Positions 4,829-55,804 of a DNA stretch of 64,000 bases are shown here, piece by piece; within the stretch, counting starts at the first letter, position 1, and the number at the start of each line of letters is the position of its first letter. Source of the stretch: Chiloscyllium plagiosum (Eukaryota); assembly GCF_004010195.1 (NCBI RefSeq), contig NC_057718.1:73717931-73781930 (forward strand), written 5' to 3'. The notes below the pieces were generated by a model. The model did no database searches and had not been told where the DNA came from. It saw only the letters and a program-made list of their open reading frames with translations. A program made the position numbers and the translations under genes.

Positions 4829-5083
4829 ATTAAAAATCACACAACACCAGGTTATAGTCCAACAGGTTTAATTGGAAGCACACTAGCTTCCAAAGTTTGA
4901 AACCTCAACATCCGCGTTTTTGCCTGCCGCGTTTTTGTCAGGTGACAATCAGGTGACAATCACCTGATGAAGAAGCGTTGCTCCGAAAGCTAGTGTGCTT
5001 CCAATTAAACCTGTTGGACTATAACCTGGTGTTGTGTGATTTTTAACTTTGTACACCCCAGTCCAACACCGGCATCTCCAAAT
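4829..5083. mobile_element. Short fold-back Penelope-type element (family B) with 12-bp TSD
   Basis: Arm 4831-4890 is the reverse complement of ~4987-5045; TSD aatgtttaggag at 4817-4828 and 5084-5095. Confidence 0.8.
4961..4995 (+). ncRNA. Minimal type I hammerhead ribozyme motif (family B)
   Basis: CAC-CTGATGA-A-GAAGC-GTT-GCTCC-GAAA-GCTA-GTG: core, stem II with one mismatch, palindromic AGCT stem III, CAC/GTG stem I. Confidence 0.7.
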
Positions 5084-6149
5084 AATGTTTAGGAGGCATT
5101 TGACACATATGAATAGGCAGGGGATAGAGGCATATGGATTGCATAGAGGCAAAAGGTTTCTAGTTTAGAAAGGATCATGTCTTGTTGCAGTCTTGGTGGG
5201 CTGAAGGTTACTGTTTTGTACTTTTTTTGTTCTTTGTGAATGAGTAAATAATTATGGGAAAGGGGAGAGGTCACATAATCAGAAGACCAAGCATAATTGG
5301 AAATAAAGTGAGGTGACAGGTCATTTCAACATGTAACAATGGAGTAAGAACAGATGATTTTAAATTATCCACCTATTAAACATTCGTCCAATTGTCCTTT
5401 CAATTGATATCAAGTAATAGGAAATTCAGTACAATAGGTAGATCATTGCTCATCATATACCTTCACTTAATGTCACTCTCAAAGTGAATGACGTCACTGT
5501 GGAAAAATCTGAATTGAGCAGGCAAAAACGCGGATGTTGAGGTTTCAAACTTTGGAAGCAATTGAACACAGAATGGAGTGAAATTTGACAGGTACTAGAT
5601 TCAAAATCACAATATTACATCAGTTGCCCATTACATGCCCCACCCGATACCCAATTCTTTCAATATCCGTGGATACTAATACTGGAAGCGGAGCTTGTTT
5701 GTAAGGGCGATTATTGTAAAACATTTTTACGGCCAAGGGAAAAGATCAGAAATGTAATGAACTGGTGGCAGTAGTTTATAGCCTCTGACTGTAGCTAATG
5801 ATGGGAGTAGCGTACAGGCTCTTTACAGCAGCTGTTTTGTAAGACAGAGAATAAATCATGAGATAATGAGGGTATAGGTCTTTCTACTATAATGTGCATT
5901 TCGTTAATGAGAATTCACCTTAGCACAATTGATGAATTGGTGACATTGTTTCCAAAGCACAAACTTTTAAAACATGTATTGGCTGTAATGCGAATACATT
6001 GCCTACACTTCAAGTGCTGTTTCTAAAGCGTAATTTTTCTACAATGCAGGGCTTCACAAGAACGTAATCATCACATTATAGAAGAACTACCTGTATGTAA
6101 AAAAGGTAGTTCCCTAATGATTGATAAGTGCAATCTTCATGTAGATTGA

Positions 6150-6925
6150 GAAAATCAAATTGAAAAAGGTGGTCATGAGGAAGAATTCATTCAATCTGTC
6201 TGGGGCAGTTTCTTGGAATGATAAGTTATGCATCCAACCAGGAATCAGACTATTTTGAATCTGGTAATATGTAATGCGGCATGTTTAATAAATTGTCTCA
6301 AAGTAAGAGAGGTGCCTCTGAATCAGTGATCCTAATATCGTAGAATTTAGCATTCAGTTTGAGATTGAGAAATTTGGTTTGGAAACAACTGTGCTTAAAA
6401 AAAAGGATAATTATATTGGGTGGTAAGGTGACTGAGTGATTAGCACGGCTACCTCACAGTACCAGGGACCTGGGCTTCATTCCAGCTTTGGGTCTGTCTG
6501 TATGGAGATTGCATGCTCTGAATGGTGCACCGTGCTTGGGGTTAAGGATAGTATCAAATTGAAAGAAAACGTGTACGTTATGGGAAGCCATAGGATAGAG
6601 TAAGTTTTAAAAGCCAACAGAGTATGAGCCGAGAAAAACCTGTAAGGACAAACTGAAATAATATCAAAATAGACAGCAAGAAATTCTTTAGATATATCAA
6701 AAGGAAAAGAGAGACAAAGTGAACATAAAGAATGTAACAGCAGAGCATTTGAAAAGACTAAGAAATAAAGTAGTGTCAGCATAGCGTCACAAAGGAGAAA
6801 TCATGCCTGACAAATTTATTACAGTTCTTTGAGAAGGTAACAAGCAGGGTCAATAAAGTGGAACTAGTGGATATAATATATTTGGATTTCCACAAGGCAT
6901 TCAACAAAGACCCACACAAACAGTG
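6150..6925 (+). mobile_element. Highly decayed CR1 ORF2 fragments with a degenerate SINE head (~6420-6510)
   Basis: APE-like ILNLV and SD remnants; RT VDIIYLDFHKAFNK at 6858-6910. Confidence 0.65.
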
Positions 6926-7856
6926 TTATCAGATTAGCCATGATCTCATCAAATGGCAGAGCAAACTCGATGGGCCAAAAGTCCTATTTCTGTGTTCTAC
7001 AGTGTGTAGTCTAATGGGTCAAACAAAGGTTCTGGAGAAACTTCTGGAGATATTTGCAATATGCTACAATTTACCCATCCACTGTTGTGCAAGCTTTGTG
7101 CTCCACAGAGTTACTACCAATCCCATAGAATGGAAACATCACTTTACTATCCTTTCTATCCTAGGAATAGTATTGCAGAGAAACTAACTAAGGTTAAAGA
7201 AATGGAATATACCACAGGAGACAAAAGGAATCAAATAAAGGTAAGGTGACATTATCAATCACCATTATTAAGAATGGACAAAAGTCCATCAACACCCGAG
7301 ATATGATGATGTTAAGGTACTTATCAAGCAATGCATCTGTGAGGGGACATTGCACTTACCAAATAAAAACACAACACCAAGTGGACCTTCATGATACATA
7401 ATTTTGTCATTGAGTTTCACCACCACAGGTTGTTTTTCTATGTAAAGTGCGAGGACTGTTAAAGTAATTTGGTAGTAGTCAGTAAGAGGCTTCTCAGTCA
7501 ACTCTGTAACATTAAGGCAAGGTGTTTCATTGCAGCAAAACAGTTTAACCAAATTTGGCTTCTGACAATATTACAAGTATACATGAGAATACAAAAGTGA
7601 ACAATGCAAGTGACAAGAGTAAGCTTGCCGAAAATATAAAAACTGACTACAAAAGCTTCTGTAGATATGTGAAGAGAAAAAGACTATTGAAGATAAATGT
7701 AGGCCCCTCAGAAGGGCCTACAGTTAGAATCAGGTGAATTCTTAATGGACAACAGAGATGGCAGATCAATTGAACAAATACTTTCGATCTGTCCAACGAG
7801 GAGGACACAAATAACCTTTCAGAAATGCAAGGGGATGGGGGGGGCGGGGTCAAGTA

Positions 7857-8508
7857 TGAATTGAATTGAATTGAATTTATTGTCATTTGTACCGAGGCAC
7901 ATTGAATTGAATTTATTGTCATTTGTACCGAGGCACAGTGAAAAGCTTTGTCTTGCGAGCAATACAAGCAGATCACAGAGTTAAGTATTATAGATACGTA
8001 AATAATAGGTAAACAGCAGCAAAAACAAAAATACAGGTATAGGCGAATGTTAAGGGTTTGTGAGTCCATTCAGTATTCTAACAACAATAGGGTAGAAACT
8101 GTTTCAAAACCGGCTGGTGCGTGTGTTAAGGCTTCTGTACCTTCTCCCAGATGGTAGAGGTTGTAGAAAAACATTGCCACTGTGGAATGGATCTTTGAGA
8201 ATGCTGGCGGCCTTTCCTTGACAGCGGGCCTGATAGATGGATTTTATAGATGGGAGGTTGCCCTTTCTGGGTAAAAACAAGGACTGCAGATGCTGGAAAC
8301 CAGAGTATAGATTAGAGTGGTGCTGGAAAAGCACAGCAGGACAGGCAGAAACCAAGGAGCATGAAAATCGAGAGCTGGAAGGTTGGAGCTGGGGTGAGGT
8401 GGGGGAAGGGGAAATGAGGAAACTGGTGAAATCCACCAGTTGCTCTTTCTGTTACTGTCTCCGATCTTGAATGGTGCAGTTGCCATACCAAGTAGTGATA
8501 CATCCAGA
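7857..8508 (-). mobile_element. Rex1/Babar-clade LINE 3' end inside a CR1 fragment (7600-8830), itself interrupted by a Penelope-type piece (8268-8440)
   Basis: LPSIKSIYQARC..KAASILKDPFHSGN.FLQPLPSGRRYRS..RTSRF and SGCITTWYGNCT; (TCAAT)n tail with a ~36-bp tandem duplication at 7866-7937. Confidence 0.82.
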
Positions 8509-9810: not shown

Positions 9811-10017
9811 TGCTCTTGTTCTTGTTCCTTCATGCCTTCTGGGCATGACAATATAGAAAATAGAGACAGAAATTGATAGCTAAAATTTTAAGTGCTGGTT
9901 CTGGGTGCATTAAAATTTTTTCTTACAATAAAATAGATGTCCATCTTGAACATCAAAGAAAATACAATTTAAAATTAAAGGCATTCAAAATGTCTCGTCC
10001 ATGCCTTTCTCACCCAT

Positions 10018-10248
10018 AGTCAAGAGTGTGGTGCTGGAAAAGCACAGCAGGTCAGGCAGCATCCGAAGAGTAGGAGAATTGACATTTCAAGCACAAGCCC
10101 TTCATCAGGAATGGAAGGCTCTTATGAAGGGCGTATGCCCGAAATGTCGATTCTCCTGCTCCTTGGAAGCTGCCTGACCTGCTCTGCTTTTCCAGCACCA
10201 CATTCTTGACTCTAATCCCCAGTATATGCAGTCCTCACTTTCTCTTCT
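10018..10248. mobile_element. Short fold-back Penelope-type element (family A) with 12-bp TSD
   Basis: Inverted arms meet at ~10110-10120; degenerate hammerhead cores on both arms; TSD tttctcacccat at 10006-10017 and 10249-10260. Confidence 0.8.
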
Positions 10249-10669: not shown

Positions 10670-12260
10670 AAGAAGAACAAGGAACAAAGGAAAATACAGC
10701 ACAGGAACAGGTCCTTCTGCCCTCCAAGCCTGTGCCGACACATTTTGCCCTTCCAAACTAAACCTGTCTTCACTTACAGGATCCATACCCCTCTATTCTC
10801 TTCCTATTCATGTATTCATCCAGGTGTTTCTTGAATGCTGCTATTGTGCCTGCTTCCACCACCTTCTCTGGCAGCATATTCTCAGCACTCATCACCCTTT
10901 GTCTGTCGCCTTGCACATCTCTTTTAAACTTCATTGAACTTTGAACCTATGTCCCTTAGTACGTGACCTGGAGAAAGTGAGGACTGCAGATGCTGGAGAT
11001 CAGAGTCAAAACATGTGGCACTGGAAAAGGACAGCAGGTCAGCCCTTCACGATGGAGGACTTATGCCCGAAACGTCGATTCTCTTGCCCCTCAGAGGCTG
11101 CCTGACCTGCTGTGCTTTTCTAGCACCACACTTTTCAACTTAGTAATTGACACCTCCACCCTGGGAAAAAGCTTCATACTTTCCACTCTACTCATACCAC
11201 TCACAATCTTATAAACTTGCATCAGATCGGCACTCAACCTCCTGTGTTCCTGTGAAAACAAACCCAGTCTATCCAACCTTTCTTCAGAGTTAAAATTCCC
11301 CACATCAGGCAACATCCTGATAAATCTTTTCTGTACCCTCTCTAAAGCATCCACAGCCTTCTGGTAGTGTAGTGACCACTATTATGTGTATCGTCTGCAA
11401 ACTTACTAATTTGACCAGCTACATTTTCCTCCAAATCATTAATGTAGACTACAAACCTCAGAGGTCCTAGCAGTGATCCCTATGGAACACCACTAGTCAT
11501 AGTCCTCCATTCTGAAAAGCATCTTTTCTCAGCTAACCTCTGTTTCCTATGATTAAGCCAGTTCTGTATTCATCTTGCCAGCTCACCCAGATACGATTTG
11601 ACTTCACCTGTTGTACCAGTCTGTAATGAGGAACTTTATCAAAGGCATTACTGAATTCCATGTAGGCAGTAATGGAGTTTGCACGTTCTCCCCGTGTCTG
11701 CGTGGGTTTCCTCCGGGTGCTCCGGTTTCCTCCCACAGTCCAAAGATGTGCAGGTCAGGTGAATTGGCCATGCTAAATTGTCCGTAGTGTTAGGTAAGGG
11801 GTAAATGTCGTGGTCTGGGTGGGTTGTGCTTCGGTGGGTCGGTGTGGACTTGTTGGGCCGAAGGGCCTGTTTCCACACTGTAATGTAATCTAATCTAATA
11901 ATCTAATCTGTCAAACATCAACTGCTTTTCCATCAATCATCTTCGTCACCTCCTCAAATAATTTGTACAAGTCAGTGAGGCACGACCTCTGCCCTGCTCA
12001 AAACCTGTCTATCACTTATAAATCCATTTGCTTCTAAATGTATAGATCTTGTCTCTGAGAATCTTATCCAATAGTTTCCATACCACTAACGTGAGGCTCA
12101 CATGCCTGTAATTTCCTAGATTATCCCTGTTACCTTTCTGAAGCAATGGGAGAACATTGGCGAATCTTCAGTTCTCTGGGACCTCGCCTTTGGCCATATA
12201 GGACACAAAGGTGTCTGCCAATGCTTCAGCAATTTGTTCTCTTGCCTTCCTCAGTATCAT
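10670..12260 (-). mobile_element. CR1 RT/3' end with nested family A element (10970-11140) and HE1 SINE
   Basis: ORF 11091..11354 LERVQKRFIRMLP; YMEFSNAFDKVPH near 11640; 3' UTR at ~10670-10790. Confidence 0.85.
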
Positions 12261-13880: not shown

Positions 13881-14552
13881 CAGAACTGTATGCAATACTC
13901 CAAGTGCACCAAAGTTTTGTACAGCTGCAGCATGACCTCATGGCTCTGAAACTCAGTCATAGAGTCATAGAGTCATAGAGTCATAGAGATATACAGCATG
14001 GAAATAGATCCTTCGGTCCAATTCGTCCATGCAAACCAGATATCCCAACCCAATCTAGTCCCAAGTCCCATCCAGTTCAAGGCACTTATCTATTTTCACA
14101 CTTGCCAGAATTGCTAACACCTCCTCCTTGTGAACCTCAATCCCATCTAGTCTAAGAGCCTGTATCTCAGTACTCTCCTTGACAACATTGTCTTTTTCCA
14201 AAATGACGAAAAATATTAATTTAGCATTTCCCCTACCTCCTTAGAATCCACACACAACTTCCCATTACTATCCTTGATTGGCCCTAATCTTACTCTACTC
14301 ATTCTTTTATTCCTGATATACCTGTAGAAAGTTTTAGGTTTTTCTTGATCCTATCTGCCAATGACTTCTCATGTCCCCACACAGCTCCTCTTAGCTCTCT
14401 CTTTAGGTCCTTCCGGGCTAACTCATAACTCTCAAGCGCCCTAACTGAGCTTTCATGTCTCATCCTAACATAATTTGGAGATGCCGGTGTTGGACTGGGG
14501 TGTACAAAGTTAAAAATCACACAACACCAGGTTATAGGTTTAATTGGAAGCA

Positions 14553-14587
14553 CACTAGCTTTCAGAGCGACGCTCCTTCATCAGGTG
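14553..14587 (-). ncRNA. Minimal hammerhead ribozyme motif (family B)
   Basis: Reverse complement reads CAC-CTGATGA-A-GGAGC-GTC-GCTCT-GAAA-GCTA-GTG. Confidence 0.72.
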
Positions 14588-14682
14588 ATAGTGGAGAGCT
14601 CGATCGTAACACAGAATTTATAGCAAAAATTTACAGTGTGATGTAACTGAAATTATACATTGAAAAATTGATTGTCTGTTAA

Positions 14683-15033
14683 NNNNNNNNNNNNNNNNNN
14701 NNNNNNNNNNNNNNNNNNNNNNNNNNNNNNNNNNNNNNNNNNNNNNNNNNNNNNNNNNNNNNNNNNNNNNNNNNNNNNNNNNNNNNNNNNNNNNNNNNNN
14801 NNNNNNNNNNNNNNNNNNNNNNNNNNNNNNNNNNNNNNNNNNNNNNNNNNNNNNNNNNNNNNNNNNNNNNNNNNNNNNNNNNNNNNNNNNNNNNNNNNNN
14901 NNNNNNNNNNNNNNNNNNNNNNNNNNNNNNNNNNNNNNNNNNNNNNNNNNNNNNNNNNNNNNNNNNNNNNNNNNNNNNNNNNNNNNNNNNNNNNNNNNNN
15001 NNNNNNNNNNNNNNNNNNNNNNNNNNNNNNNNN
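14683..15033. other. Assembly gap (N run)
   Basis: Run of N. Confidence 0.99.
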
Positions 15034-15164
15034 AGTGAAACTATCACTGTATTCTAACAGATGAAAGGCTTAACAGACAATCAATTTTTCAATGTATAAT
15101 TTCAGTTACATCACACTGTAAATTTTTGCTATAAATTCTGTGTTACGATCGAGCTCTCCACTAT

Positions 15165-15199
15165 CACCTGATGAAGGAGCGTCGCTCTGAAAGCTAGTG
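15165..15199 (+). ncRNA. Minimal hammerhead ribozyme motif (family B)
   Basis: CAC-CTGATGA-A-GGAGC-GTC-GCTCT-GAAA-GCTA-GTG; stem II has 5 pairs, closing pair G.U. Confidence 0.72.
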
Positions 15200-15671
15200 T
15201 GCTTCCAATTAAACCTGTTGGACTGGAACCTGGTGTTGTGTGATTTTTAACTTTGTACATCCTAACATAAGCCTTCTTCTTCCTCTTGACAAGAGATTCA
15301 ACTTCTTTAGTAAACCATGGCTCCCTCACTCAACTATTTCCTCCCTGCTTGACATACTTATCAAGGATATACAGTAGCTGTTCCTTGAATAAGCTCCATA
15401 TTTCAAATTGTGCCCATCCCCTGCAGTTTCCTTCCCCATCCTATGCATCCTAAACCTTGCCTAATCACATCATATTTGCCTTTACCCCAGCAATGACTCT
15501 TGTCCTGTGTCACGTACCTATCCCTTTCTATCACTAAAGTAATCATAACCAAATTGTGGTCACTATCACCAAAGTGCTCACCTACTTCCAAATCTAACAA
15601 CTGACCTGGTTCATTACCCAGTACCAAATCCAATTTGGCCTCAACCCTTGTTGGCTTGTCTGGATAATGTG

Positions 15672-15861
15672 GAGAAAGTAAGGACTGCAGATGCTGGAGA
15701 CCAGAGTTGAAAAGTGTGGTGCTGGAAAAACACAGCAGGCCAGGCAGCATCCAAGGAGCAGGAGAATTGATATTTCGGGCATAAGCCCTTCTTCAGGAAG
15801 GGCTTATGGCTGGAAAGTCGATTCTCCTGCTCCTTGGATGCTGCCTGGCCTGCTGTGTTTT
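15672..15861. mobile_element. Short fold-back Penelope-type element (family A)
   Basis: Inverted arms; TSD tct(g/a)gataatgtg at 15659-15671 and 15862-15874. Confidence 0.78.
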
Positions 15862-17419
15862 TCTAGATAATGTGTCAGGAAACCATTATGCACACCTTGA
15901 ACAAAATCTGGCCCATCTAATGTACTCAAACTATAGTATTTCTAGTCAATATATGGAAATTTAAAGTCCACCATAACAACTACCCTGTTACTCTCGCTCT
16001 TATCCAGAATTATCTTTGCTATCTTTTCCTCTACATCTCTGGAACTTTTCGGAGGCTATAAAAAACTCCCAACAGGGTGACCTCTCCTTTCCTGTTTCTA
16101 ACCTCAGCCCATACTACCTCAGTAGATGAGCCCTCAAACCTTTTTCTGCCACTATAATACTGTCCTTGACTAACAATGTCACACCTCCCCCTCTTTTACC
16201 ATCTTCTCTGTTCTTACTGAAATATCTAAAACCTGGAACCTGCAACAACCATTCCTATGCCTGCTCTATCCATGTCTCTGAAATGGCCGCAACATGGAAC
16301 TCATAGATTCCAACCCATGCTGCAAATTCAACTACTTTATTCTAGATGCTCTTGGTGTTGAAGTAGACACACCACCAACCATCTTCCTGCTTGCAAGTAA
16401 ACTCTTGTAACTTTGAAACCTCATTTCTGACCTCATTACTCTCAACCTCTTGGACACTGGAACTACAATTTAGGTTCCAATCCCCTTGCTGAATTAGTTT
16501 AAACCCTCCCGAACAGCTTTGGCAAATTTCCCCAATTATCCAGGTATCTGAAACCTTCCCTCCTGCACCATCCCTGTAGCCACGTGTTCAACTCCTCTCT
16601 CTCCCTATTCCTCGCCTTGCTAGCATGTGGCATGAGCAACAAACCAGAAATAACAACACTGTTTGTTCTAGCACTAAGCCTCCACCCTAGCTCTCTGAAT
16701 TTCTGCCTTAAATCCCCATCATTTTTCCTACCTATATCATTAGTACCTATGAGGACCACGAGTTGGGGCTGCTCCCCCTCCTCCTCAGGGATCCAGAAAC
16801 ACAATCGGAGACATCACGAACCCTGGCACCTGGGAGGCAACACACCAAACGTGAGTCTCTCTCATTCCCACAGAACCTCTATCTGTCCCCTTAACTATGG
16901 AGTCCGCAATAACTAATGCTCTGCTCCTCTCCCCACTTGCCTTCTGAGCAATAGGGACAGACTCTGTGCCAGAGACTTGTATCCCATTACTTATCCTTGG
17001 TAAGTTATTTTCCTCCCCCAACAATATCCAAAATGGTATACTTGTTATTGAGGGGACCGGCCACAAGGGTTCCTTGCATTACCTGCTGGTTCCCTTTCCG
17101 TCCCCTGACTGTAACCCATCTGCTTCCCGAGGTGTGACTACCTTCCTGTAACTCCTCTCAATGACCCCCTCTGCCTCCCGAATGATCCGAACGTCATCCA
17201 GCTCCAGCTCCAGTTCCCTAATGTGGTTTTCAAAGACCCTCACCTCCCACATTATGCAGGAGGAACATTCAACTGCCACCATTCCCACTATTCTAAATTC
17301 CCAAAGAGACCATTGAGAAACAAAGAATTTTAAAAAACTAGTAACCTTACCAATCTGGCACATTGAACTTTTTTTTTGGTTGGAGGAGGAGGATGGGTGG
17401 GAGACACTATTTAAGTAGT

Positions 17420-20340: not shown

Positions 20341-21407
20341 TTAAATGAACACTTATCTCTTCGACCAAACATTATTCAATTTGCCACCTTGTGTCACAGT
20401 GCCAGGTTTAGCTCCTATGAATAACAGTTTCTATTTCATGATAAATGCTGAACAAATGCAAATTAATACATCGTATTTTGTCTGCCAATTAGTTGAATTT
20501 GGATCTCATGAATATGTAATGAGCACGTGTGATTACATAGACAGTGTTTGAAAATTTAAGTTGGACAAGCTTTCTTTACAGAACTCCAAGGAACTTATTT
20601 GACCAAAACAATCTTATGTTTCATTATAGACATTTCTGAAGAATACTTAAAATGTACTGTTGCTTTACTAAAAGTTGAATTTCCTCTGAGGTAATGTTGT
20701 TTCTCCATTAATCCAAGAATACAATTTGAATCTCTTATTACATTGCATCTTTGGATCTCTTGCGTTAACTTGATACTGAGAAGTTTCACCAGTTTAATCT
20801 GATTGTTTCCATCTGATATGTAGGCCAGGTTAAGGCAGGCAGACCTGAAAGATAAAGTGTAGAGTGCAGTAGTGCTAATGGACAAATCTTCACCCTCAGG
20901 GAAAGAAGGAAAAGCACAGTTCAAGAATGCATTCACATCTATAGCAGTCTCTGTTACAATCTGCAATTGCTTGTTTAATTTCTATTTTCATAGAACCATG
21001 GATTCCTTGCAGATCCATCATGTCCATGTTAGCCCTAAGGAAGGATTCACTGCTACTCACCACTGCCCGCTCCATCCCCAACACCCACCGTCCCCACCTC
21101 CTTAAACATTCCTTCTCTATAGTTATTTTGAAAGAAATATATAAAAATTAAAACATCATGGAGGCCTCTCTGTCCATTATTTCTATGCCAACTGAGAAAC
21201 AAATCACCCAGCCTCATTCCTTTTCCAGCACTTAGTCTGTAACCCTGAGGCTATGGAACTTCAGGTGCAAAATCTAGACACCTTTTAAACGAGTTGAGAA
21301 TTTTTCCTCTATGCCTTTTTCAACCAGTGGGTTCCAGACATACACCCACCACCACCACCACACTCTTTGATGAAGTGACCAGAACTGCAAACCGTTTTCA
21401 AGTTGTA

Positions 21408-21573
21408 GTCCAACAGGTTTATTTGGAAGGACTAGTTTCGGAGCGGTGCGTATCTGATGAAGAAGCAGCCCTCCAAAAGCTAGTGCTTCCAAATAAACCT
21501 GTCAGACTATAACCTGGTGTTGTGTATTTTTAACTTTGTACACCCCAGTCCAACACGGCTCCTCCACATTATG
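21408..21573. mobile_element. Short fold-back Penelope-type element (family B), 14-bp TSD
   Basis: TSD gttttcaagttgta at 21394-21407 and 21574-21587; degenerate core ctgatgaagaagcagccctccaaaagctagtg. Confidence 0.8.
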
Positions 21574-23234
21574 GTTTTCAAGTTGTAACCTAACTAGCGT
21601 TTAAACTCCAGCATAACCTAATGGGAATCATTGTAAAGACTTTTAAGGTCTCCGTTTTGTTATTCTTCCATTCATCCATACATTCATTAGTAACTCAAAC
21701 ATCAGTGGCAATGTGAGAGTCATGCATGTAAGTGATACTAAATCTAATTAGGTATGGAATTTGACTCAAAATGTAAAGTCGGAAGAGATAGTAATTTCTG
21801 AAACACCAGTGATAAGTGCCACCTAATATTTTTATTCCCCTGGCTTTATTAGGACTGAGTTGGAGCAGTCCATGTTTGGTCAGCTGATGTAACTAAACCT
21901 GATTTGTGTCCCCACCCATGCCCAATTTCATTTTCTTCTGTGTCTTCAAATGAGTATTTAAATGGTAAACCCTTACTTTCTATCATTTTTTCTGATGACA
22001 GCTGCCTGACCTGCTGTGCTTTTCCAGCACCACACTCTCAACTCTGATCACCAGCATCTGCAGTCCCTACCTTCTCCTTGAATTGGGGTGGACAAAGTTA
22101 AAAATCACACAACACCAGCATTCCAGTCTGTAAAATGTCCCAACAGGTGGAAGGTGTTTGAGATGAATCGGTGCCAGATAAAAGCCCTCAAGCATTATTA
22201 TTAAATAAAGCATTAGAAGCAGCATAGTTACTAAGATATATTTGTAAAATTAGAATATTTGACCTATTGAGTCAGTTCCACATTTATTGAAATGTAAATA
22301 AATACATTTCTTTACTACATCCCAGAAACAAAATGAGATATCCAGAATCTGGATTCTTACTTATAAAACCAGTTTCATGTTGATTAACCCCAAGTGCAAA
22401 ATTGCTGATAGTACAGTTTAAAAATAAATCTACCTATTCAGGGATGTTATGACAGACCACTTAATTAGATGGGACTCGATGTTGTGCTTCCTAGTTCAGC
22501 CATAGAGAGATGTCACTGCGCCACAAGAGCTCGCATCATTCAAAGTATAAATGAAGCCTGGAAGTTCCATTCACATGCACGACATTGCAGTGGTTCAGCC
22601 TCCACCACATTGGAAAGATGTGTGACATGGAAACGCCAATGTTGGACTGGGGTGGACAAAGTCAAAAATCACAAAATTAATTACTCACTGGGGTGGACAA
22701 AAGTCAAAAAAGTAAAGATAACCTGGCGTTGTGTGAGTTTTCACGTTGGAAAGAGTCTGAGAGATGCCAGTTTTATATAGTGAAAACTCAAACATCGTAG
22801 AATTATACAGTGCAGAAAATATTTATTCGGCCTCCCTGTGAGTGCCAGCCCTTTGAAAGGACTTCCCAGCTTATCCATGACCTCTCCCATAACCTGTCCC
22901 TATAGTGCTGAACTAATATTAATCTTAAAGTATTCATTTTGTGAGAATTATTGATTCAACATACCCTATTGTTCAAGCAGTGTTTTCCTGAGAATAACTT
23001 TATGTAGAAAATGCCCATGCCATATCTCTACTGATTCTTTTTCAAACACTATGGCCAATTTCTCTGCATCAGACAATGTGTCTCAGCAGGGATCCTGACC
23101 TGTATATCTCAGGGAGCATAGCAAACAGTGCTTGGCAATTTTGAGAGCATCTTCTGATTCAGACAAAGACACTTCAAATAGATGAAACAAGGAGTTTCAT
23201 ATCAGAGGATAAGTGAATAATTATAAAATGTATT

Positions 23235-24351: not shown

Positions 24352-25050
24352 ATTCATAGATCCTTGAAAGTGGAGTTGTAGAGAGATAGGATAGTGAAGA
24401 AGGCGTTTGGCATGCTTTCCTTTATTGCTCAGAGTATCGAGTACAAGAGTTGGGAGGTCGTGCTGCGGCTGTACAAGACATTGGTTAGGTCACTTTTGGA
24501 ATATTGCATGCAATTCTGGTCTCCTTCGTATCAGAAGGATGTTATGAAACTTGAAAGGGTTCAGAAAAGATTTACAAGGATGTTGCCAGGGTTGGAGGAT
24601 TTGAGCTATAGGGAGAGGTTAAATAGGCTGGGGCTGTTTTCCCTGGGGTGTCGAAGGCAGAGGGGTGACCTTATAGATGTCTGCAAAATCATGAAGGGCA
24701 TGGATAGGATAAATAGACAAAGTCTCTTCCCTGGGTTGAGGGAGTCCAGAACTAGAGGGCATAGGTTTAGGGTGAGCGGGAAAAGATATAAAAGAGACCT
24801 AAGGGGTAACGTTTTCACGCAGGGGTTGGTAGGTGTATGGAATGAGCTGCCAGAGGAAGTGGTGGAGGTTAATACAATTGTAACATTTAATAAGCATCTG
24901 GACAGGTATATGAATAGGAAGGGTTTGAGGGATATGGGCCAGGTGCTGGCAGGTGGGACTAGATTCGGTTGGGATATCTGGTCGGCATGGATGAGTTGGA
25001 TCAAAGGGTCTCTTTCCATGCTGTACATCTCTATGACTCTATCACTCTAT
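24352..25050 (+). mobile_element. CR1 3' end, relatively young
   Basis: ORF 24394.. KKAFGMLSFI...LEYCMQFWSP...WNELPEEVV; (gactctat)n-like tail. Confidence 0.92.
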
Positions 25051-25814
25051 GACAATCTGAGCCAGGTGTTGTTGAATTGGTTGCTCCCTTCTCAGGTTAT
25101 GATAGTCTGCCATCAGGTTATGATGCATAGCAAGGGAGGCAGCAGGATTAAGATCACTAGACTCATCATCCGCCATATTGCCCAGGAGCTTCTTGTGGAG
25201 TGGAGTGACCAATGACTTTTTGTTCTCTGCAACATCTGCCATAACCAATGGTGGCAATTTTAATTGTAGCTTTAAATGAGATTTAGAAAAGACATATAAA
25301 CTCTCCTGATCAATTAGCCATGATCGATCTCTTTCTCTTATCATCGAAGGAGTACCCCTTCAAGAAATGTTTTCAACTGCATGTGCAAGCCATTTACGTT
25401 GTGTGCAATGCAGATACTAATATGCTGATAGCCACCCTGGCTATTCTGGGAATGTGCAAACATATGTAGGTCACTCAGCCCTTCTGACCTGCTCTGCTCC
25501 TCAATCAGATCATGCCTGCTAATTATCCCCAATTATCTGCCTCGACAAATTCATGATGCTCCTTGTCTTGCAAGCCTGCAATGGTCCTAAAATGCACAAA
25601 CCTTTAGAGGAATGACTTCTAAATTTTAGATCCATTACTATGTCTAAAATTGATTTTTCTCTTTTCTTCCAAACTTTCTGAATATAATTTGTGTCCTTTG
25701 CTGAGTAAACAGTTCATTATGGTTTTTAATAGTCCATCAAGTTTGTTTGTTTGATCGTTTGGCATTATTGAGCAAGTAATGAATTTTATATCAATGTTTA
25801 CCATAGCTTAACAT

Positions 25815-32337: not shown

Positions 32338-32474
32338 GAAGGGCTCATTCCTGAAGAAGGGCTCATGCCCGAAACGTCGATTCTCCTGCTCCTTGGATGT
32401 TGCCTGACCTGCTGTGCTTTTCCAGCAACACATTTTCAGCTCTGATCTCCAGCATCTGTAGTCCTCACTTTCTC
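32338..32474 (+). mobile_element. Short Penelope-type element (family A), 17-bp TSD
   Basis: TSD ctataacagtatgagct at 32321-32337 and 32475-32491. Confidence 0.85.
32347..32382 (+). ncRNA. Minimal hammerhead ribozyme motif (family A)
   Basis: ATTC-CTGAAGA-A-GGGC-TCAT-GCCC-GAAA-CGTC-GATT; GUC triplet; ACGT palindromic stem III. Confidence 0.72.
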
Positions 32475-36335: not shown

Positions 36336-37269
36336 GAGTTTTGAGAAGATTTGTAGCTCAGGTTGAGGTTTTGGATGTAGATTTGCTGAGTGGCAAGGTT
36401 CATTTCCAGACATTTCGTTACCCTACTAAGTAACATCTTTAGTGGCCCTCAGGTGAAGCAATGCTGAAAATTCCTGCTTTCTATTTATATGGCTGGGTTT
36501 CTTTGGGTTGGTGATGTCCTTTCCTGTGGTGAAGTCACTTCCTGTTCCTTTTCTCAGGGGGTGGTAGATGGAGTCTAACTCGATGTGTTTGTTGATAGAG
36601 TTTCTGTTGGAATGCTATGCTTCTAGGAATTCTCATGCATATCTTTGTTTGGCTTGTCCTCGGATGGATATGTTGTCCTAGTCGAAGTGGTGTCCTTCCT
36701 CATCCGTATACCAACACACTAAAACAGCAGCCTAATGAACTTGAAAGACCCTATACAGACAACAAGCAAAACTAATGTCATTTACAAAATACAATGCAAG
36801 GACTGCAACAAACACTACATTGGACGAACAGGCAGAAAACTAGCCACCAGGATACGTGAACTCCAACTAGCCGCAAAAAGACATGATCCTCTCTCACTAG
36901 TATCCTCACATACAGATGAGGAAGGACACCACTTCGAATGGAACAAAACATCCATCCTAGGACAAGCCAAACAAAGGCATGCATGAGAATTCCTAGAAGC
37001 ATGGCATTCCAATAAGAATTCTATCAACAAACACATTAAGATAGACCCCCATCTACCACCCCCTGAGAAAAGGAACAGGAATGACTTCACCACAGGAAAT
37101 AACATCACCACATGAAATTACATCACTGACCCAAAGAAACCCAAACATATAAATAGCAAGCAGGAATTTTCAGCATTGCTTTGCCTGAGGCCCACTGAAG
37201 ATATTATCTAGTAGGGTAACGAAACGTCTGGAAATGAACCTTGCAGCTCAGTGAGCAAACCTACATCCA
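36336..37269. mobile_element. Penelope-like element (GIY-YIG) with inverted terminal arms
   Basis: ORF 36735..36986 NVIYKIQCKDCNKHYIGRTGRKLATRIREL; arm 36336-36709 is the reverse complement of ~36910-37269 plus an extension; TSD-like ata(c/t)tttgaaa(c/t)aat at 36321-36335 and 37270-37284. Confidence 0.9.
37192..37231 (+). ncRNA. Minimal hammerhead ribozyme motif (family C); inverted copy at 36406-36445
   Basis: CCA-CTGAAGA-T-ATTATC-TAGTAG-GGTAAC-GAAA-CGTC-TGG; the - strand copy has GTTAC/GTAAC stem II but a mutated core. Confidence 0.72.
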
Positions 37270-37360
37270 ATATTTTGAAATAATCTCTTCCTAACAGTGA
37301 AAAGTGTACATATACTCCTAGTTGCTGTGTTTGGTTCAACAGATCTCTTGCCATTTTGTA

Positions 37361-45314: not shown

Positions 45315-45878
45315 TCATAGTCATAGAGATGTATAGCATGGAAACAGACCCTTCGGTCCAACTTATCCATGCCAACCAGATATCTCAACCCAATCTAGTC
45401 CCACCTGCCAGCACCTGGCCCATATCCCTCCAAACCCTTCCTATTTATATACCCATCTAGATGCCTTTTAAATGTTGCACTTGTACCAGTCTCCACCACT
45501 TCCTCTGGCAGCTCATTCCATACACGTACCATCCTTTGCATGAAAAGGTTGCCCCTTAGGTCTCTTTTAGGTCTTTCCCCTCTCACCCTAAACCTATGCC
45601 CTCTAGTTCTGGACTCCCCCACCCCAGGGAGAAGACTTTGTCTATTTATCCTATCCATGCCCCTCATGATTTTATAAACCTCTATAAGGTCACCCCTCAG
45701 TCTCCAAAGCTCCAGGGAAAACAGCCCCAGCCTATTCAACCTCTCATTATAGCTCAAATCCTCCAACCCTGGCAACATCCTTGTAAATCTTTTCTGAACC
45801 CTTTCAAGTTTCACAACATCTTTCTGATAGAAAGGAGACAAGAAAAGATGTTGTGAAACTTGAAAGGATTCAGAAAAG
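45315..45878 (-). mobile_element. Young CR1 3' end with a short 5' inversion
   Basis: ORF 45395..45841; 45841-45878 is an inverted copy of 45789-45824. Confidence 0.9.
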
Positions 45879-46586
45879 CAGCTGCTAGAAGTTTGAGTTT
45901 CAGATTGTGGAGATGTCTGGGCACACTGGAGTATTCACGAGGTGGAGAGTATCATGGATATTACGTATAGAGAGATGGTCACACTGCAGACTCAGATTCC
46001 ACAGGCAGGAAGGGAATGGTTGACCACCAGGCAGAGCAGGGGGCTAAGAGGTAGAGTAGGAATTTCCTGTACGATAGCCTGGCAAAACAGATATATTGTT
46101 GAGGGAACAGCCTCTTGGGATAACAGCAGCAGCCAAATTTATGGCACCATGGTTGGCTCTGCTGCAGAGGGAGGGAGAAATAAGCATAGAAATGCTATCA
46201 TTCACAGAGGATTCAATCATTAAGAGAGTATAGACGTTTCTGTGTCCACAAACGAGAGACACCTTGGTGTATTGCTTCCCTGGTGCTATGTTTCTGGATG
46301 TTTCAGAGCAGTTGCAACACATTTTTGAGGGGGAAGGACAAACAGACAGTGATCGTGATACATGTTGGTACAAATGACATTGGTTAAAAAAAATGAATGA
46401 GGTAGTTAACTCAAGATTACTACCAGTGCCACAAGCTAGTCAGAGTAGAAACAGCAGGATATATCAGATTAACATGTGGCTGAAAAGATTGTGTGTTGGG
46501 GAGGGTTTAAACTAGTGTGGCCAGGAATGGGAACCAGAGTAGTAGTATATGCAGAAATTGACGGCAACGTAGAAACCGAAACAAAT

Positions 46587-46695
46587 ACCTGATGAAGGGC
46601 TTATACCCAAAATGTCGAGTCTTCTGCTCCTCGGATGCCTTTCCAGCACCACACTCTTGACTCGGATCTCCAGCATCTGCAGTCCTCTCTTTCTC
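46587..46695 (+). mobile_element. Family A Penelope-type fragment
   Basis: cctgatgaagggcttatacccaaaatgtcga...ctccagcatctgcagtcctctctttctc. Confidence 0.75.
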
Positions 46696-48060
46696 TTGGC
46701 TGAAAAGTATAATAGGCAAGGTAGATGAACTTAAATCTTTGGTTGGTACTTGGAATTATCAATTATGGAGACTTGGCTGAAAGAGGGACAGGACTGGCAG
46801 CTGAATATCCCAGGATTAAAATGTTTCAGGTGTGATAGAAGGGGATGTAAAAGGGGTGGGGGAGTTGCATTACTGGTAAAGGAATATCTCAAAGCTGTAC
46901 TGAGGGAGGATACATCAGAGGGCTCATGCAATGAGGTAATATGGGTAGAACTCAGGAACAGGAAAGGTGAAATCACAATGCTGGGGCTATATTACAGGCC
47001 TCCCAACAGCTGATGGGAGATAGAGGAGAGAATTATATGGACAGATGTTTGGAAAGATATAAAAACAATAGGGTTGTTATGGTGGGTGATTTTAACTTCC
47101 GACATATCGACTGGGACTCATTTTGTGCTCGGGGCTTGGATGGGGCAAAATTTGGAAGGACCATTCAGGAGGGTTTCTTGACACAGTATATAAACAGTCC
47201 AACCAGGGAAGGGTTATACTGCACCTGGTTTTGGGAAATGAGTCCAGCCAAGAGAGTGACATTTCAGTGGGGAGCATTTGGGAATAGTGACCATAATACA
47301 GTGAGTTTTAAGATATTCGTGATAACAGCAGTCCTCGGGTAAAGTTGTTAAATTGGGGGAAGGCAAACTTCAACAATATTAGACAGAAAGTGAAGAATGT
47401 TGTTTGGAGCTGGCTATTTGAGGGGAAATCCACATCGAACATATGGGAGCCTTTCAAACAGCAGTTGATAAGAGTTCAGGAGCGGCATGTTCTTGCGCGA
47501 ATGAATGATAGGTATAGCAAGTTATGTGAACCTTGGATGACCAGGATGTTATGGCCTTAGTTAAAAAGGAAAATGAAGCATATGCAAGGTAAGGATGATC
47601 AGAACTTACAAAGCCCTCAAAGTATTTAAGGGAAGTAGGAAAGAACTTAAACAAGGAATTAGAAGGGCTTAGAAGAGTTATACTTGCAAACCCCAGACCG
47701 GGGACAAAGACTCAGGAGGCAGGCATAATTCAGGCACATGGCAGTTTTTAATTCAAGCAGTCACCACATCATGTAGGGAGAGAGCCAGAGACTACTTCCA
47801 AATCTGGCCTTGACATGAGGACACAACTATCCCCCTAATCTTTGGCTCAGATCGGAAGAGACGTCAATGACACGCTCTGACTTTCACAATAAGATACAGT
47901 ATTTTTATACGTTTTGTGTTACAATAATCACATATTATTGAATTTGTTTGATCCACTAGATTCTTACAAGCCATAATCCCATTAATTTATCTGTTTGTAA
48001 TTATGGGAGCTTACTTTTCTTGTTACAAATCATCAACTTGTCTGTCCTTGGATGTTTCTT

Positions 48061-48912
48061 TGAGGAGAAAGTGAGGTCTGCAGATGCTGGAGATCAGAGC
48101 TGGAAATGTGTTTCTGGAAAAGCGCAGCAGGTCAGGCAGCATCTAGGGAACAGGAGAATCGACGTATCGGGCATTAGCCCTTCTTCAGGAATGAGGAAAG
48201 TTGGTCCAGCAGGCTAAGATATTCCATATTCCCTATCTTTTATCTTAGCCTGCTGGACCAACTTTCCTCATTCCTGAAGAAGGGCTAATGCCCGAAACGT
48301 CGATTCTCCTGTTCCCTNNNNNNNNNNNNNNNNNNNNNNNNNNNNNNNNNNNNNNNNNNNNNNNNNNNNNNNNNNNNNNNNNNNNNNNNNNNNNNNNNNN
48401 NNNNNNNNNNNNNNNNNNNNNNNNNNNNNNNNNNNNNNNNNNNNNNNNNNNNNNNNNNNNNNNNNNNNNNNNNNNNNNNNNNNNNNNNNNNNNNNNNNNN
48501 NNNNNNNNNNNNNNNNNNNNNNNNNNNNNNNNNNNNNNNNNNNNNNNNNNNNNNNNNNNNNNNNNNNNNNNNNNNNNNNNNNNNNNNNNNNNNNNNNNNN
48601 NNNNNNNNNNNNNNNNNNNNNNNNNNNNNNNNNNNNNNNNNNNNNNNNNNNNNNNNNNNNNNNNNNNNNNNNNNNNNNNNNNNNNNNNNNNNNNNNNNNN
48701 NNNNNNNNNNNNNNNNNNNNNNNNNNNNNNNNNNNNNNNNNNNNNNNNNNNNNNNNNCGCTCCTCCCCCAAGTCCCTCCTCCCTATCTTTTATCTTAGCC
48801 TGCTGGACCAACTTTCCTCATTCCTGAAGAAGGGCTAATGCCCGAAACGTCGATTCTCCTGTTCCCTAGATGCTGCCTGACCTGCTGCGCTTTTCCAGCA
48901 ACACATTTCCAT
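48061..48912. mobile_element. Fold-back family A element spanning an N gap, 14-bp TSD, three hammerhead motifs
   Basis: TSD cttggatgtttctt at 48047-48060 and 48913-48926; cores CTGAAGA-A-GGGC-TAAT-GCCC-GAAACGTC at 48274-48301 and 48824-48851 (+), and a mutated copy at ~48161-48188 (-). Confidence 0.85.
48318..48757. other. Assembly gap (N run)
   Basis: Run of N. Confidence 0.99.
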
Positions 48913-50292
48913 CTTGGATGTTTCTTGTCAAACTGTCTCAAGCAAACCTTTTGCAATGGTTTTGTGCAGGGCTCCATTTCACATTGGAATAACCCCTGTT
49001 CAAAGGCACCATTATGTCAACTCATGATATCACTTAAATGCTGGATCAGATTTTTAATCCTGTTCAACCACTTGTCGGCCATTTTGTGTCTCTCAGCTAT
49101 GGACAGCCCTAAGAGAGTCATGAAGTCATTAGCAAACAGGATAAAAGAGAATTCAAAGGCTTTTTACACATATATAAAAAGCAAAAGGGTAACCAGGGAA
49201 AGAGTTGAACCACTCAAAGACAAAGGAGGAAATCAGTATATGGAGCCACAGGAGGTAGGTGAGGTCATAAACAAATATTTTGTATTGGTATTGACCAAAC
49301 AGAAGGAATTGGTGGAGGATGTGTCAAATTTCTAAGCCACGTTGCTATTGAAAAGGAAGAAATGTTGTGTGTCTTATAAAGTATTGAGGTAGATAAGTCC
49401 ATGGATCGTGATGGGATTTTTCCAGAATATTAAGGGAAGCAAGAAAACAAGTTGCTGGAACATTGATAGACATCTTTGTATTCTCTTTGGTCACAGATGA
49501 GGATCCAGAAGACTGAAGAATAGCCAATGTTATCCCGTTGTTTAAGAAGAGTGACAGGGATAATCCAAGAAGTTACGAGTCTGTGAGTCTCACATCGGTG
49601 GCAGGGAAATAATTGGAAAAGATTCTCAGGAATAAGATCTATACACATTTAGAAGCAGATTGACATGGTTTTGTCTACAGGGAGGTCATACCTTACCAAC
49701 TTGATCGAGTTTTTTGGATTGTTGATGAAGATGATTGACCGAGGCAAAAGCGGTTGATGTTGTCTACATGGACTCAGTAAAATCTTTGACAAGTTGTCTC
49801 ATGGCAGACAGGTACAGAAGATGGAGTCACATGGTATCAGTGGTAAGCTGGCATGATGGATACAGAACTTGCTTAGTCATAGGAGACAGAGGGTAGCGGT
49901 GGAAGGATGCTTTTTTGGAATGAAGGGTTGTGACTGGTGGTGTTCCACAGGGATCAGCGCTGGGGCCTCTGCTGTTCATGTTCTACATGGATCAGTTGGA
50001 GAAAAATGTGGCTGGTCTAAAGAGTACACTTGAGGATGATACAAAGATTGGCGGAGTTTCAGATAGTGAGGAGGATTGTCAGAGGATACAACAGGATATA
50101 GATCATTTGGAAACATTGGCAGGAAAATGGCAGATAGCATTTAAACCAGACACATTTGAGGTGATACATTTTGAAGGTCGAGTATAGAAGGAAATTATAC
50201 AGTGAATGGCAGAACCCTTTCGAGTATTGATATGCAGAGGGATCTGGGTGTGCAGGTCTACAGATCACTGAAGATGGTAGCGCAGGTAGATA

Positions 50293-50490: not shown

Positions 50491-51866
50491 AAGACAGACC
50501 TAGGCATGCTTGTTTTCATTGGAAGGGGCATCGAGTATAAAGATAGACAAGTTATGCTGCGGCTTCCTCAAACTTTAGTTAGGCCACACTTGGAATATTG
50601 CATACAGTTCTGGTCACCACACAACCAGAAGGGTGTGGATGCTTTGGAGAGGGTACAGAAAATGTTTATCAGGATGATCCCTAGTGAGGGATTTTAGCTA
50701 TGAAGAAAGATTGGATATATTGGGTTTGTTTTCACTAGAACGCAGGAGCTTGAGAAGTGACTTGATAGAAGTTTATAAGATTGTGAATGGTATGGGTAGA
50801 GTGGAAAGTATGAGGCTTTTTCCCAAGGTGGAGGGGTCTATTACGAAGGGGACCCAGGTTCAGGTGAAGTTGGGAAAGTTTAAAAGAGATGTGCAAGGCA
50901 CGTTTTCCACACAAAGGGTGGTGAGTGTCTGGAACAAACTGTCAGAGGAGGTGGTGAAAGCAGGCACAATAGCAGTATTCAAGAAGCACCTGTACAAACA
51001 CATGAATAAGAAAGGAATAGAGGGATACAGATTCTGTAAGTGAAGACAGGTTTTGTATGGAAGGGCAAAATGTGTCAGCACAGGCTTGACGAGCGAAAGT
51101 ACCTGTTCCTATGCTGTATTGTTCTTTGTTCCAGGACCAGGTTAATCAACACAGCAGGACTAGTAGTCTGAAGTGTATTTATTTTAATATAAGGAACATA
51201 ACAGATAAGGCGGGTGAGCTTAGAGCCTGGATTAGTACATAGGATATGATGTGATAACTATTACAGGAACTGGATTGAAAAAAAAGGCATGACTGGTAAC
51301 TCAATGTTCCGTGGTTAAGATTTAAGATTTAAGGTGAGATGGAGATGTAAAATTGGTGAGAGAGTTGCATTACTGACTAAGGACAAGGTACAGCTATATT
51401 AAGAGGACATCTTGAAGAGCTCATCCAGCAATACAATATGGGTAGAACTTAAAAATGAGAATGGTGCAGTCTCTATGATGGAGTTATATTATAGGCCTCC
51501 CGGTAGCCAGCAGGAATTAGAGGAACAGGTATGTAAGATGGTCATAGAAAGATTTTGTAGTCGCAGAATTTGCTAGGTGTATCCAGAGGGTTTCTTGAAA
51601 TAATATGCAGATAGTCCAACTTGGGAAGAGGCCATTTTAATCCTTGTATTGGAGATTCAACCTGGCTAAGTGATTTAAGTTTCAGTAGGGAAGCATTTTG
51701 GAAACAGTAATTGTAATTCTGTAGGTTTTAAGATAGCTTTTAAAAAGGATAAGGCTGGTCTTCTGGTGAAAGTGCTAAATTGGGGGAAGGCTAATTATGA
51801 CAGTATTAGACAGGATCTTCAAAAATTGGATTAGAAACAGCTGTTTGAAGGTAGATCCACATTTGT

Positions 51867-53763: not shown

Positions 53764-54321
53764 TTCCTAACACAGACAAGGCCTTTCACATGGAAGCTAG
53801 AGCTACAAGTACATAATTCAGGTACGTAATTCTTTGAAGTTTGGAACACATATAGATAAGGTGATTATGAAGGCATTTAACTTGTTTGGCTTCTTTGCTC
53901 AGACCTTTGAGTATAGAAGTTAGGACATGATGTTGAAACCATACAGGATGTTAGTGAGGCAGTTTCTGAACACTGTGTTCAGTCCTGGTCTCCCTGTTAT
54001 AGGAAGGATATTATTAAGCTGGAGAGGTTCAGAAGTGAGGGGAGGCTGCTCCCATCATAGTTGCCTCCTGAATTCTGAGAGAAATTGAATGACTTTCTCT
54101 GCATGTGAGAGACATTTGCTAACCACATTTTGAGCTATCAAGCATTTTACTTACTTCACAGGCTTTAGTAAGGTGATATTCTGTAGTCTACATACTCCCC
54201 TGAATCTCCTGCTCAGGCTATTATCTGCTCAAATAAGCTTTTGGACACTGGAATTGACCCAATGCAACTCAGGGGTAATACATAAACAGACTACTTACTT
54301 CAGCATCTTGTGTATAATGGA

Positions 54322-54508
54322 GAAAATGAGGACTTGAAGATGCTGGAGAACAGAGTCGAAGAGTGTGGTGCTGGAAAAGCACAGCTGGTCAGGCAGCATC
54401 TGAGAAGCAGGAGATGCCTGATGAAAGGCATATGCCCGAAACGTTGATTCTCCTGCTCCTTGGATGCTGCCTGGCCAACTGTTCTTTTCCAGCACTACAC
54501 TCTTTGAC
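54322..54508. mobile_element. Short fold-back family A element, 16-bp TSD
   Basis: TSD tcttgtgtat(a/g)atgga at 54306-54321 and 54509-54524; core ctgatgaaaggcatatgcccgaaacgtt. Confidence 0.82.
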
Positions 54509-55680
54509 TCTTGTGTATGATGGACCAGTTCACAAATGTCCATTACCCATAAATAGATTTCTCTACCTGGAGAAATCGAGGGAGCACCAGATACCTTCAT
54601 CAATGTATCTCATTTCAGAAGGATGGTAAACTACACTCCAGCTTTGTTTTTGTTACACCAGTTAAGATTATTCAGTGACATTCTGCTCAACATGCTAAGA
54701 TGCCTACACTCCTTTCAGGTTTCTAATTGTCAAAGTGTTAACATCTGGTCTGCCAATGCCTACAGTTTTCTATACTTGCTTTTATGACCATTATATGGAT
54801 GGAATAAATTTTGTATATTGACGGTAAACCCCTTTTGCACTTAAACCAGTTCTGAACCCTTTTTGCGATGTTAAGGAATTGTACAAGACTTGTTTTGTAG
54901 GCAGGTTGAGGTCCTATTCCCACTCCCCAGATCCCCTTACTGAAGGTAATCTTGCAGCAGATTGGTAGCTAGACAAGCCACAATAACAGCTCCCACCCAG
55001 ATAAAACTGCCAGTTCCTAACTTGTTACCAATAGTGTTGGTCAATCGGGATAGTGAACTCACTACCTTGCAAGTAATATTTGATCCCACTGCAATCATCT
55101 GAAACCATAGGTCAGCCTCTGCTGACATTGATACCTTGGGCCCAACGTATCTGCATCAGGCTGACCACAAGACGTCAAGCTTGTACTCAAACCAGATAAC
55201 TAATTGCTTATATTCACCTGACTATGGCAGAAGAATTGTTAAAGTTATGAAACATCCAGCCCATTGGAACACACTATTAAGCAAAAGCCACCCTGGACAA
55301 ACTCTGCATCTGGCATCCAGATTGTAAAAAGGCATTAAGGCCAAGACTCAGAGGTGTCTCCCATCTCCAGCATAATCCAAGCAACTGTACAATCTGAGCA
55401 CTGTTACATGAGACACCTCCACCTGAAGTGCCCTGGACACACATCTAGATAGAATTTAATGGGCTTCTACCTACCACATCTTTATCTTACATACACTGCC
55501 TAGTCTTAAATACACTAGATGAATCAAAACTGGTAAAAAAAAAAGGTCTTCACTCCAGCCAAGCTATTACTGGGTGAGGTGCTATGCAGATGGGGATTTC
55601 CACTCCACTTTGACAGTGACCAGGACTCCCAATTCACCAGAAAGACCTTTTTTGAACTCAACCACCTAATGAAAATTGAT

Positions 55681-55804
55681 TCCTGAAGAAAGGCTTATGC
55701 CCGAAACGTCGATTCTCCTGTTCCCTGGATGCTGCCTGACCTGCTGCGCTGTTCCAGCAACACATTTCAGCTCTGATCTCCAGCATCTGCAGACCTCACT
55801 TTCT
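55681..55804 (+). mobile_element. Short family A element starting at the hammerhead core, 16-bp TSD
   Basis: TSD cctaatgaaaattgat at 55665-55680 and 55805-55820; ctgaagaaaggcttatgcccgaaacgtc. Confidence 0.85.

Follow-up and report, generated by a model that had tools for sequence, protein, structure and literature searches.

The window analysed here, a stretch of 64,000 nucleotides from the genome of Chiloscyllium plagiosum (contig NC_057718.1), contains numerous short insertions carrying minimal type I hammerhead ribozyme motifs, which fall into three sequence families designated A, B and C. Each motif opens or sits within a repeat of 90-135 nt, and we regard it as nearly certain that these repeats are the pseudo-long terminal repeats (pLTRs) of three families of Penelope-like elements. 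The initial annotation had inferred this link, which is borne out by longer copies where the motifs sit just 3' of a GIY-YIG endonuclease frame. All 15 hammerhead motifs that it listed were recovered at their coordinates; they do not, however, represent separate copies, as they belong to only 11 insertions and several are the two arms of one. Motifs 48161, 48274 and 48824 lie in a single insertion, as do 14553 and 15165, and 36406 and 37192 form one inverted pair (Table 1). Duplicated flanks of 8-17 nt were found in 10 of the 11 window insertions checked.

Six of the 15 motifs, in four insertions, are intact (15165, 14553, 32351, 48274, 48824 and 28906). Stem II pairs are broken in 4961, 55683, 54418 and 37192, the core is broken in 48161 and 36406, and stem I pairing is lost in 15796; both family C copies of the window are thus non-intact. 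About seven more family A fragments, absent from the first list, were found. In family A, stem I is weak, with 2 bp and a mismatch in most subfamilies and 4 bp in one. A strict minimal-hammerhead descriptor gave 8 window matches against a mean of 0.1 (maximum 1) in 100 dinucleotide shuffles and, when the palindrome and a stem I of at least 2 bp were also demanded, 6 matches against 0. Applied to an evenly spaced genome sample of 80 stretches of 10 kb (771 kb after exclusion of N), the strict descriptor found 63 matches compared with 1-3 in five shuffles.

The core CUGANGA ... GAAA ... NUH, in type I order, is intact in the same 6 of 15 listed motifs and in the majority sequences of all main subfamilies. 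The extra base after A9 was used by 59 of the 63 descriptor matches, even though the descriptor also allowed none, and the loopless palindromic stem III is present in 42 of the 63, the exceptions being CpG transitions. G10.1 and C11.1 are the majority bases in families A and B; among 38 family C copies, position 11.1 (a CpG site) carries C 15 times and T 22 times. The tolerance pattern noticed in the window, with core and stems better kept than the loop, also holds in an unbiased sample of 180 family A copies, where divergence from the majority base rises from 0.029 in the non-CpG core through 0.07 (stem II) and 0.25 (loop) to 0.45 (position 7). Loop conservation ranks likewise in families B and C, and position 7 is nearly invariant in B. 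The sequence 3' of the family A motif is largely well kept too (mean divergence 0.098), hence conservation alone is not specific to the hammerhead. Compensatory changes were counted in family C only: among 19 distinct rows, 87.9% of the cells are paired compared with 34-47% when the alignment is slid, the stem I pair being GC in 9, UA in 6 and CG in 4 rows with none unpaired, and stem II alternating between CG, UG and UA. One column of stem II fails to pair in 9 of the 19 rows, and these changes represent few independent events, inherited by subfamilies, in a stem that overlaps coding sequence. Together, core and stem divergence and family C covariation support the view that the hammerhead shape is, or was, under selection. 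Other members of the unbiased sample (L143, L084, L106, L121 and others) are older hammerhead variants with a different stem II, among which there is one group of three copies.

In family A, the motif is joined to a 3' untranslated region and the GIY-YIG frame in L095, L098 and L134, with the reverse transcriptase (RT) further 5' in L095, and the order RT, GIY-YIG, hammerhead repeat is found in L095 and L098. In family C, GIY-YIG occurs in the window (36723-37115) and, together with RT, in L066, L073 and L074. The RT motif YIDD/YVDD is present in copies of both families; Pfam RVT_1 scored above cut-off for L074, and a Pfam search of the family A RT piece returned no match. Family A also provides partial tandems in which a pLTR is followed by the start of the open reading frame (ORF), at L210 and 39 further places, and the N-terminus of this ORF is collinear with RT loci L165, L174 and L181; such junctions were retrieved for family A only, not for B or C. 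A C-X4-CxxC linker was recognized in family A (L098, L134) and family B (L042), and was looked for without success in the family C endonuclease frames. A CX2-5CxxC linker is a mark of Neptune and Nematis (PMC8557442), and Neptune and Poseidon are the only such clades reported from vertebrates (10.64898/2026.07.22.740005). Judged by this linker and by likeness to PAc, the Anolis carolinensis Poseidon element (Frangieh et al. 2024, PMC11167929), we class families A and B as putatively Neptune-type and family C as putatively Poseidon-type.

The insertions themselves also look like those of Penelope-like elements. Each family has two 3' ends, at +85..92 and +121..128 in A, +82..89 and +120..124 in B, and +73 and +111..115 in C (positions are counted from the first C of the core, taken as 0, such that the predicted family A cut follows +27). 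These paired ends, about 35 nt apart, correspond to a tail of the 30-40 bp type, which in PAc has been traced to reverse transcription starting at two internal sites (PMC11167929). An inverted partner accompanies 96 of 261 A, 40 of 74 B and 10 of 43 C copies in a genome sample of 160 stretches taken at even spacing along contigs C1-C8 (1.537 Mb, N excluded). Target duplications in the window and in L001-L030 often open with TATAA, TAATG or AATG on the element strand, in keeping with the AT-rich motif (ATT) at which PAc is reported to cut (PMC11167929). Family A stubs were also seen inside other Penelope-like copies, including the first ORF codons (L009:2848-3136, L255, L210:5180-5790, L035, L073), which may reflect a preference for the element's own sequence.

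The same sample contains 288 fragments of family A (187 per Mb), 74 of family B and 46 of family C, and 65 intact motifs, or 42 per Mb (bootstrap 32-54), which extrapolates to about 140,000 intact motifs for an assumed genome of 3.4 Gb. To count ends, we kept copies starting at +55 or before and ending at +60 or after; 27 of 288 A, 0 of 74 B and 3 of 46 C fragments were dropped at stretch edges or N.

The 5' ends of these copies are far from evenly distributed. Counting only copies long enough to include the motif, 135 of 200 in family A and 38 of 60 in family B end at -12..+9, compared with 2 of 42 in family C (Fisher p against C of 7e-15 and 4e-10, respectively, with the arms of inverted pairs counted apart). 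Expressed as ends per nucleotide, this interval reaches 0.051 in A and 0.046 in B against 0.002-0.006 and 0.001-0.008 elsewhere, and 0.002 in C. The pile-up remains when inverted copies are left out (A 65/126, B 15/32, C 1/32), and the stop position is independent of which 3' start was used. Target duplications of at least 8 nt flank 27 of 71 non-inverted A stubs versus 4 of 695 mismatched pairs, and 4 of 15 B stubs versus 3 of 138 mismatched pairs; the 5' edges are thus original. Only 3 of 261 family A copies start exactly at the cut site (+28), where the local rate predicts about 1.4 per position; the templates were thus uncut at that site. Reads and contigs from public runs showed mixed flanks at -4, in 180 reads of one run, and these reflect genomic junctions rather than RNA starts. 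Two other causes were considered and set aside. Divergence of the upstream sequence is not the main source of the pile-up, which is still seen among copies at least 90% identical and among stubs with duplicated flanks, and a spliced leader joined at the motif does not fit short-stub flanks that are unique and carry target duplications.

Where the stubs stop varies between families together with the place of the start codon. In family C, an ATG lies at +6 in 45 of 49 copies, running from the final base of the core over the extra base to the opening base of stem II, and the frame that it opens stays free of stops over 22 codons in 40 of 49 copies, versus 7 and 5 in the other frames; the 49 copies include loci picked by similarity, and two of the three ATG letters were favoured by the search pattern. 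In family A, the likely ATG is found 163-166 nt downstream of the core (17 ORF-linked copies), a distance that does not preserve frame and so marks the intervening stretch as non-coding. With the start codon inside the hammerhead in C and about 165 nt downstream in A, an RNA starting at the hammerhead would be possible for A, not for C. The end repeat of the Drosophila Penelope element has been shown to contain an internal promoter (PMC2377424).

We propose that the RT of these elements likely initiates on uncut RNA, 70-100 nt behind the hammerhead, in the manner described for PAc, where initiation is internal and both cut strands are used for copying (PMC11167929), and thereby yields short stubs. 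In families A and B, the RT would probably run off the RNA 5' end at the front edge of the hammerhead, their transcripts starting in a cluster around -12..-3, and the family C transcript would start further upstream, giving its start codon a leader. The bases preceding the family A core presumably resemble an initiator consensus. The ribozyme itself would cut the element RNA slowly, either as a dimer through the ACGU or AGCU palindrome or when bound by an element protein, and its cleavage would be dispensable for insertion; dimers were found to have low cleavage activity (PMC4209133), and cleavage of PAc is protein-assisted and was not needed for insertion in vitro (PMC11167929). Taken as a whole, this chain, from minimal type I hammerheads in the pLTRs of three families to a population of mostly decayed stubs made from uncut RNA with run-off in A and B, seems to us probable, if some way from secure; the run-off step on its own is evenly poised.

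Several observations speak against parts of this proposal. The 5' ends scatter across about 20 nt, the mode (-4/-3) accounting for 40 of 261, and a cap-derived G is not evident, as filler stretches end in G in 4 of 15 cases, a small sample. ORF-linked upstream A pLTRs that reach the motif stop at -12..+9 in 6 of 16 cases and continue upstream in 10, compared with 135 of 200 stopping among solo copies (p 0.026); this set represents one family A subfamily (39 of the best 40 matches, 38 aligned). The 10 that continue argue against a single start site. Some templates may start further upstream, or these repeats may be a second insertion or a template jump. An RNA run showed both-strand reads across the motif with no clustering of molecule starts or ends, in a single-cell poly(A) library unsuited to mapping either. 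The clade contrast is drawn between one Poseidon group (several subfamilies) and two Neptune families. For family B, the endonuclease frame only was found (L035, L042, L050), RT and ORF start not being retrieved, and four of six endonuclease pieces matched Pfam GIY-YIG at E ~0.001, under the curated cut-off. Monomer folding gave z-scores of -0.8 to +0.5, a stability no greater than that of shuffles, and short folds had both stems in the lowest-energy form in one of six cases (L065); this lack of added stability is expected for this class of hammerhead (PMC4209133). Among the ORF-linked upstream pLTRs (L271-L309), some 10 of 39 have their start at roughly +95..+120, within the tail that separates the two RT start sites, although these positions are coarse.

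The spread of the ends, the lack of a cap G among the fillers and the many ORF-linked copies extending upstream, which imply that longer templates exist, would be expected if a folded or protein-bound hammerhead region blocked or released the RT on a longer RNA, the identity of the elements being the same; the need of the related PAc hammerhead for a bound protein in order to cut (PMC11167929) points in the same direction. Such a boundary should nonetheless affect ORF-linked copies equally, and they stop at the motif less often than solo ones. Moreover, the ends fall after the whole motif has been copied, not at the 3' foot of the stem, and family C, which has the longest stem II, shows no pile-up, which speaks against a plain hairpin stall. 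We therefore consider a block unlikely. Alternatively, the pile-up could arise at joining, longer complementary DNAs being trimmed through the self-complementarity of the motif (stem II, TTC-CT-GAA; annealing or fold-back) or through ATT microhomology to AT-rich targets. Inverted partners at the 5' end of many A and B copies, junctions centred on short palindromes (e.g., L142) and short fold-back fillers in some non-inverted stubs all suit this explanation. Yet stubs that have no inverted partner and are flanked by duplications accumulate at this site too, and only one of 10 inverted junctions lies at the motif in family C, which is equally self-complementary, making trimming quite improbable as the cause. 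Finally, the idea that the short copies form a non-autonomous element of their own (SINE-like or retrozyme-like), excised by the hammerhead and spreading alone, would explain the very high copy number of the 90-135 nt units and recalls the pLTR-derived non-LTR retrozymes reported, including from one cartilaginous fish (10.64898/2026.07.22.740005), but is very hard to reconcile with units that are neither tandem nor bounded by the cut site and whose subfamily sequences are also found joined to 3' untranslated region and ORF.

Run-off at an RNA 5' end in families A and B, the reading that we prefer, concerns elements whose general type is familiar. The minimal hammerheads that metazoan Penelope-like elements carry in their pLTRs (PMC4209133; Cervera and De la Pena 2014), reported from the Xena, Poseidon and Neptune elements of fish, have in common with the window motifs the type I order, the extra base between 9 and 10.1, G10.1-C11.1, a loopless palindromic 15.2-16.2, a short stem I, several families per genome and an occurrence mostly as single motifs or opposite-strand pairs 100-700 bp apart. 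Stem II is shorter here (4 bp in A, 5 bp in B) than in the Schistosoma motifs (7-8 bp), and the extrapolated abundance of ~1e5 per genome compares with ~4,000 in coelacanth and ~9,000 in Xenopus, obtained with another descriptor (PMC4209133). As judged from sequence, the window motifs share every feature tested with Penelope-like minimal hammerheads, a motif class already described along with its host elements. An Rfam scan of the window returned no hammerhead model among 14 matches up to E 5; the microRNA matches sit on inverted pairs and hairpins, all under the gathering score. Family C resembles PAc in its start codon at the start of stem II, a cut site within the first codons, the two 3' ends that give the tail, and copies made from uncut RNA, whereas the putatively Neptune-type families A and B differ from PAc in the pile-up of stubs at the front edge and, in A, in a hammerhead some 165 nt before the likely ATG (PMC11167929). 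Like the endonuclease-containing Penelope-like insertions of Craig et al. (2021, PMC8557442), the copies studied here show 5' truncation, an adjoining inverted 5'-truncated copy, a 30-40 bp tail at one end and, as in Neptune, the linker; clear target duplications of 8-17 nt are a difference. Literature searches, which included the accessible parts of PMC8557442 and PMC11167929, found no report of copies truncated preferentially at the hammerhead. The non-LTR retrozymes described by Li et al. (2026, 10.64898/2026.07.22.740005) are likewise non-coding, derived from pLTRs and equipped with a type I hammerhead, but form tandem arrays with a hammerhead in each unit, unlike the dispersed singles or inverted pairs of the window, among which no tandem units were found (a search for arrays that covered the window, not the rest of the genome). 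Literature searches on such motifs in sharks gave nothing specific in the texts available, and the families may already be named in Repbase, Dfam or the supplements of 10.64898/2026.07.22.740005.

Table 1. Hammerhead-bearing insertions, related fragments and the endonuclease frame in the window.
Feature	Position	Strand	Details
Family A stub with intact hammerhead	32340-32477; motif 32351-32378	+	loop TCAT; predicted cut after 32378; 17-nt duplicated flank
Family A inverted insertion	48061-48913	.	minus arm 48061-48221 with core broken; 14-nt duplicated flank
Intact family A motifs in the 48061-48913 insertion	48274-48301, 48824-48851	+	either side of N gap 48318-48757
Family A stub beginning 4 nt before core	55679-55812; motif 55683-55710	+	first stem II pair broken; 16-nt duplicated flank
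Family A inverted pair	54320-54513	.	motif 54418-54445 (+) decayed
Tailless family A stub	28818-28908; motif 28879-28906	-	intact, loop CTGT
Family A inverted pair, junction at hammerhead 5' edge	15671-15866	.	motif 15769-15796 (-) decayed at CpG sites
Family A inverted pair, not in first list	10015-10244	.	motif 10081-10108 (-) decayed
Family A inverted pair without core, not in first list	10970-11132	.	
Coreless family A fragment beginning near cut site, not in first list	8270-8371	-	
Family A 3' fragment, not in first list	22002-22076	+	
Old family A stub, not in first list	46585-46696	+	76% identity
Family A fragment beginning within stem II, not in first list	56522-56631	-	
Family B inverted pair	4830-5086	.	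motif 4961-4995 (+), one stem II pair broken; 12-nt duplicated flank
Family B inverted insertion across N gap 14683-15033	14470-15262	.	13-nt duplicated flank
Family B motifs of the 14470-15262 insertion	14553-14587, 15165-15199	-, +	intact cores; closing pair G-U; predicted cut after 15196
Family B inverted pair	21399-21572	.	motif 21451-21485 degenerate
Old family B stub	31829-31941	+	motif degenerate
Family C (putatively Poseidon-type) inverted insertion	36371-37270	.	motifs 36406-36445 (-, core broken) and 37192-37231 (+, first stem II pair broken)
Broken GIY-YIG endonuclease end of family C ORF	36723-37115	+	directly 5' of hammerhead; Pfam GIY-YIG on 36723-36983, E 0.00097, under curated cut-off

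The segments 48274-48317 and 48824-48867 are two family A copies, identical to each other and alike in their upstream sequence, on the two sides of a 440-nt N gap in one insertion, and may be one copy assembled twice. Elsewhere in the window, segments 2-448, 24382-25215, 28102-28710, 45395-45934 and 50678-51043 are remnants that we take to be the RT C-terminus of CR1-type long interspersed nuclear elements (LINEs); the broken frames at 29042-30655 presumably derive from the pol of an LTR retroelement (RT, RNase H). A near-perfect hairpin of 90 nt (45789-45878) in a LINE remnant attracted several sub-threshold microRNA matches. A weak U6 match at 24522-24630 (19.4 bits against a gathering score of 44) is probably due to chance or an old pseudogene.

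The role of the hammerhead in Penelope-like elements is called open (PMC8557442, PMC11167929). Stub boundaries offer a large natural data set on this question, indicating that insertion used RNA uncut at the ribozyme, and where they stop varies from one clade to the other along with the start codon position. They bear on where the RNA starts and on whether the ribozyme regulates translation or template supply. Tentatively, and with somewhat more doubt than confidence, we suggest that Neptune-type RNAs begin at the first bases of the hammerhead, that the hundreds of thousands of stubs would be run-off copies primed in the same end repeat, and that Poseidon-type elements leave no such record. 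If this is true, the two clades would use the ribozyme differently, to remove a capped leader of 30 nt in Neptune-type elements and to cut the reading frame in Poseidon-type ones.

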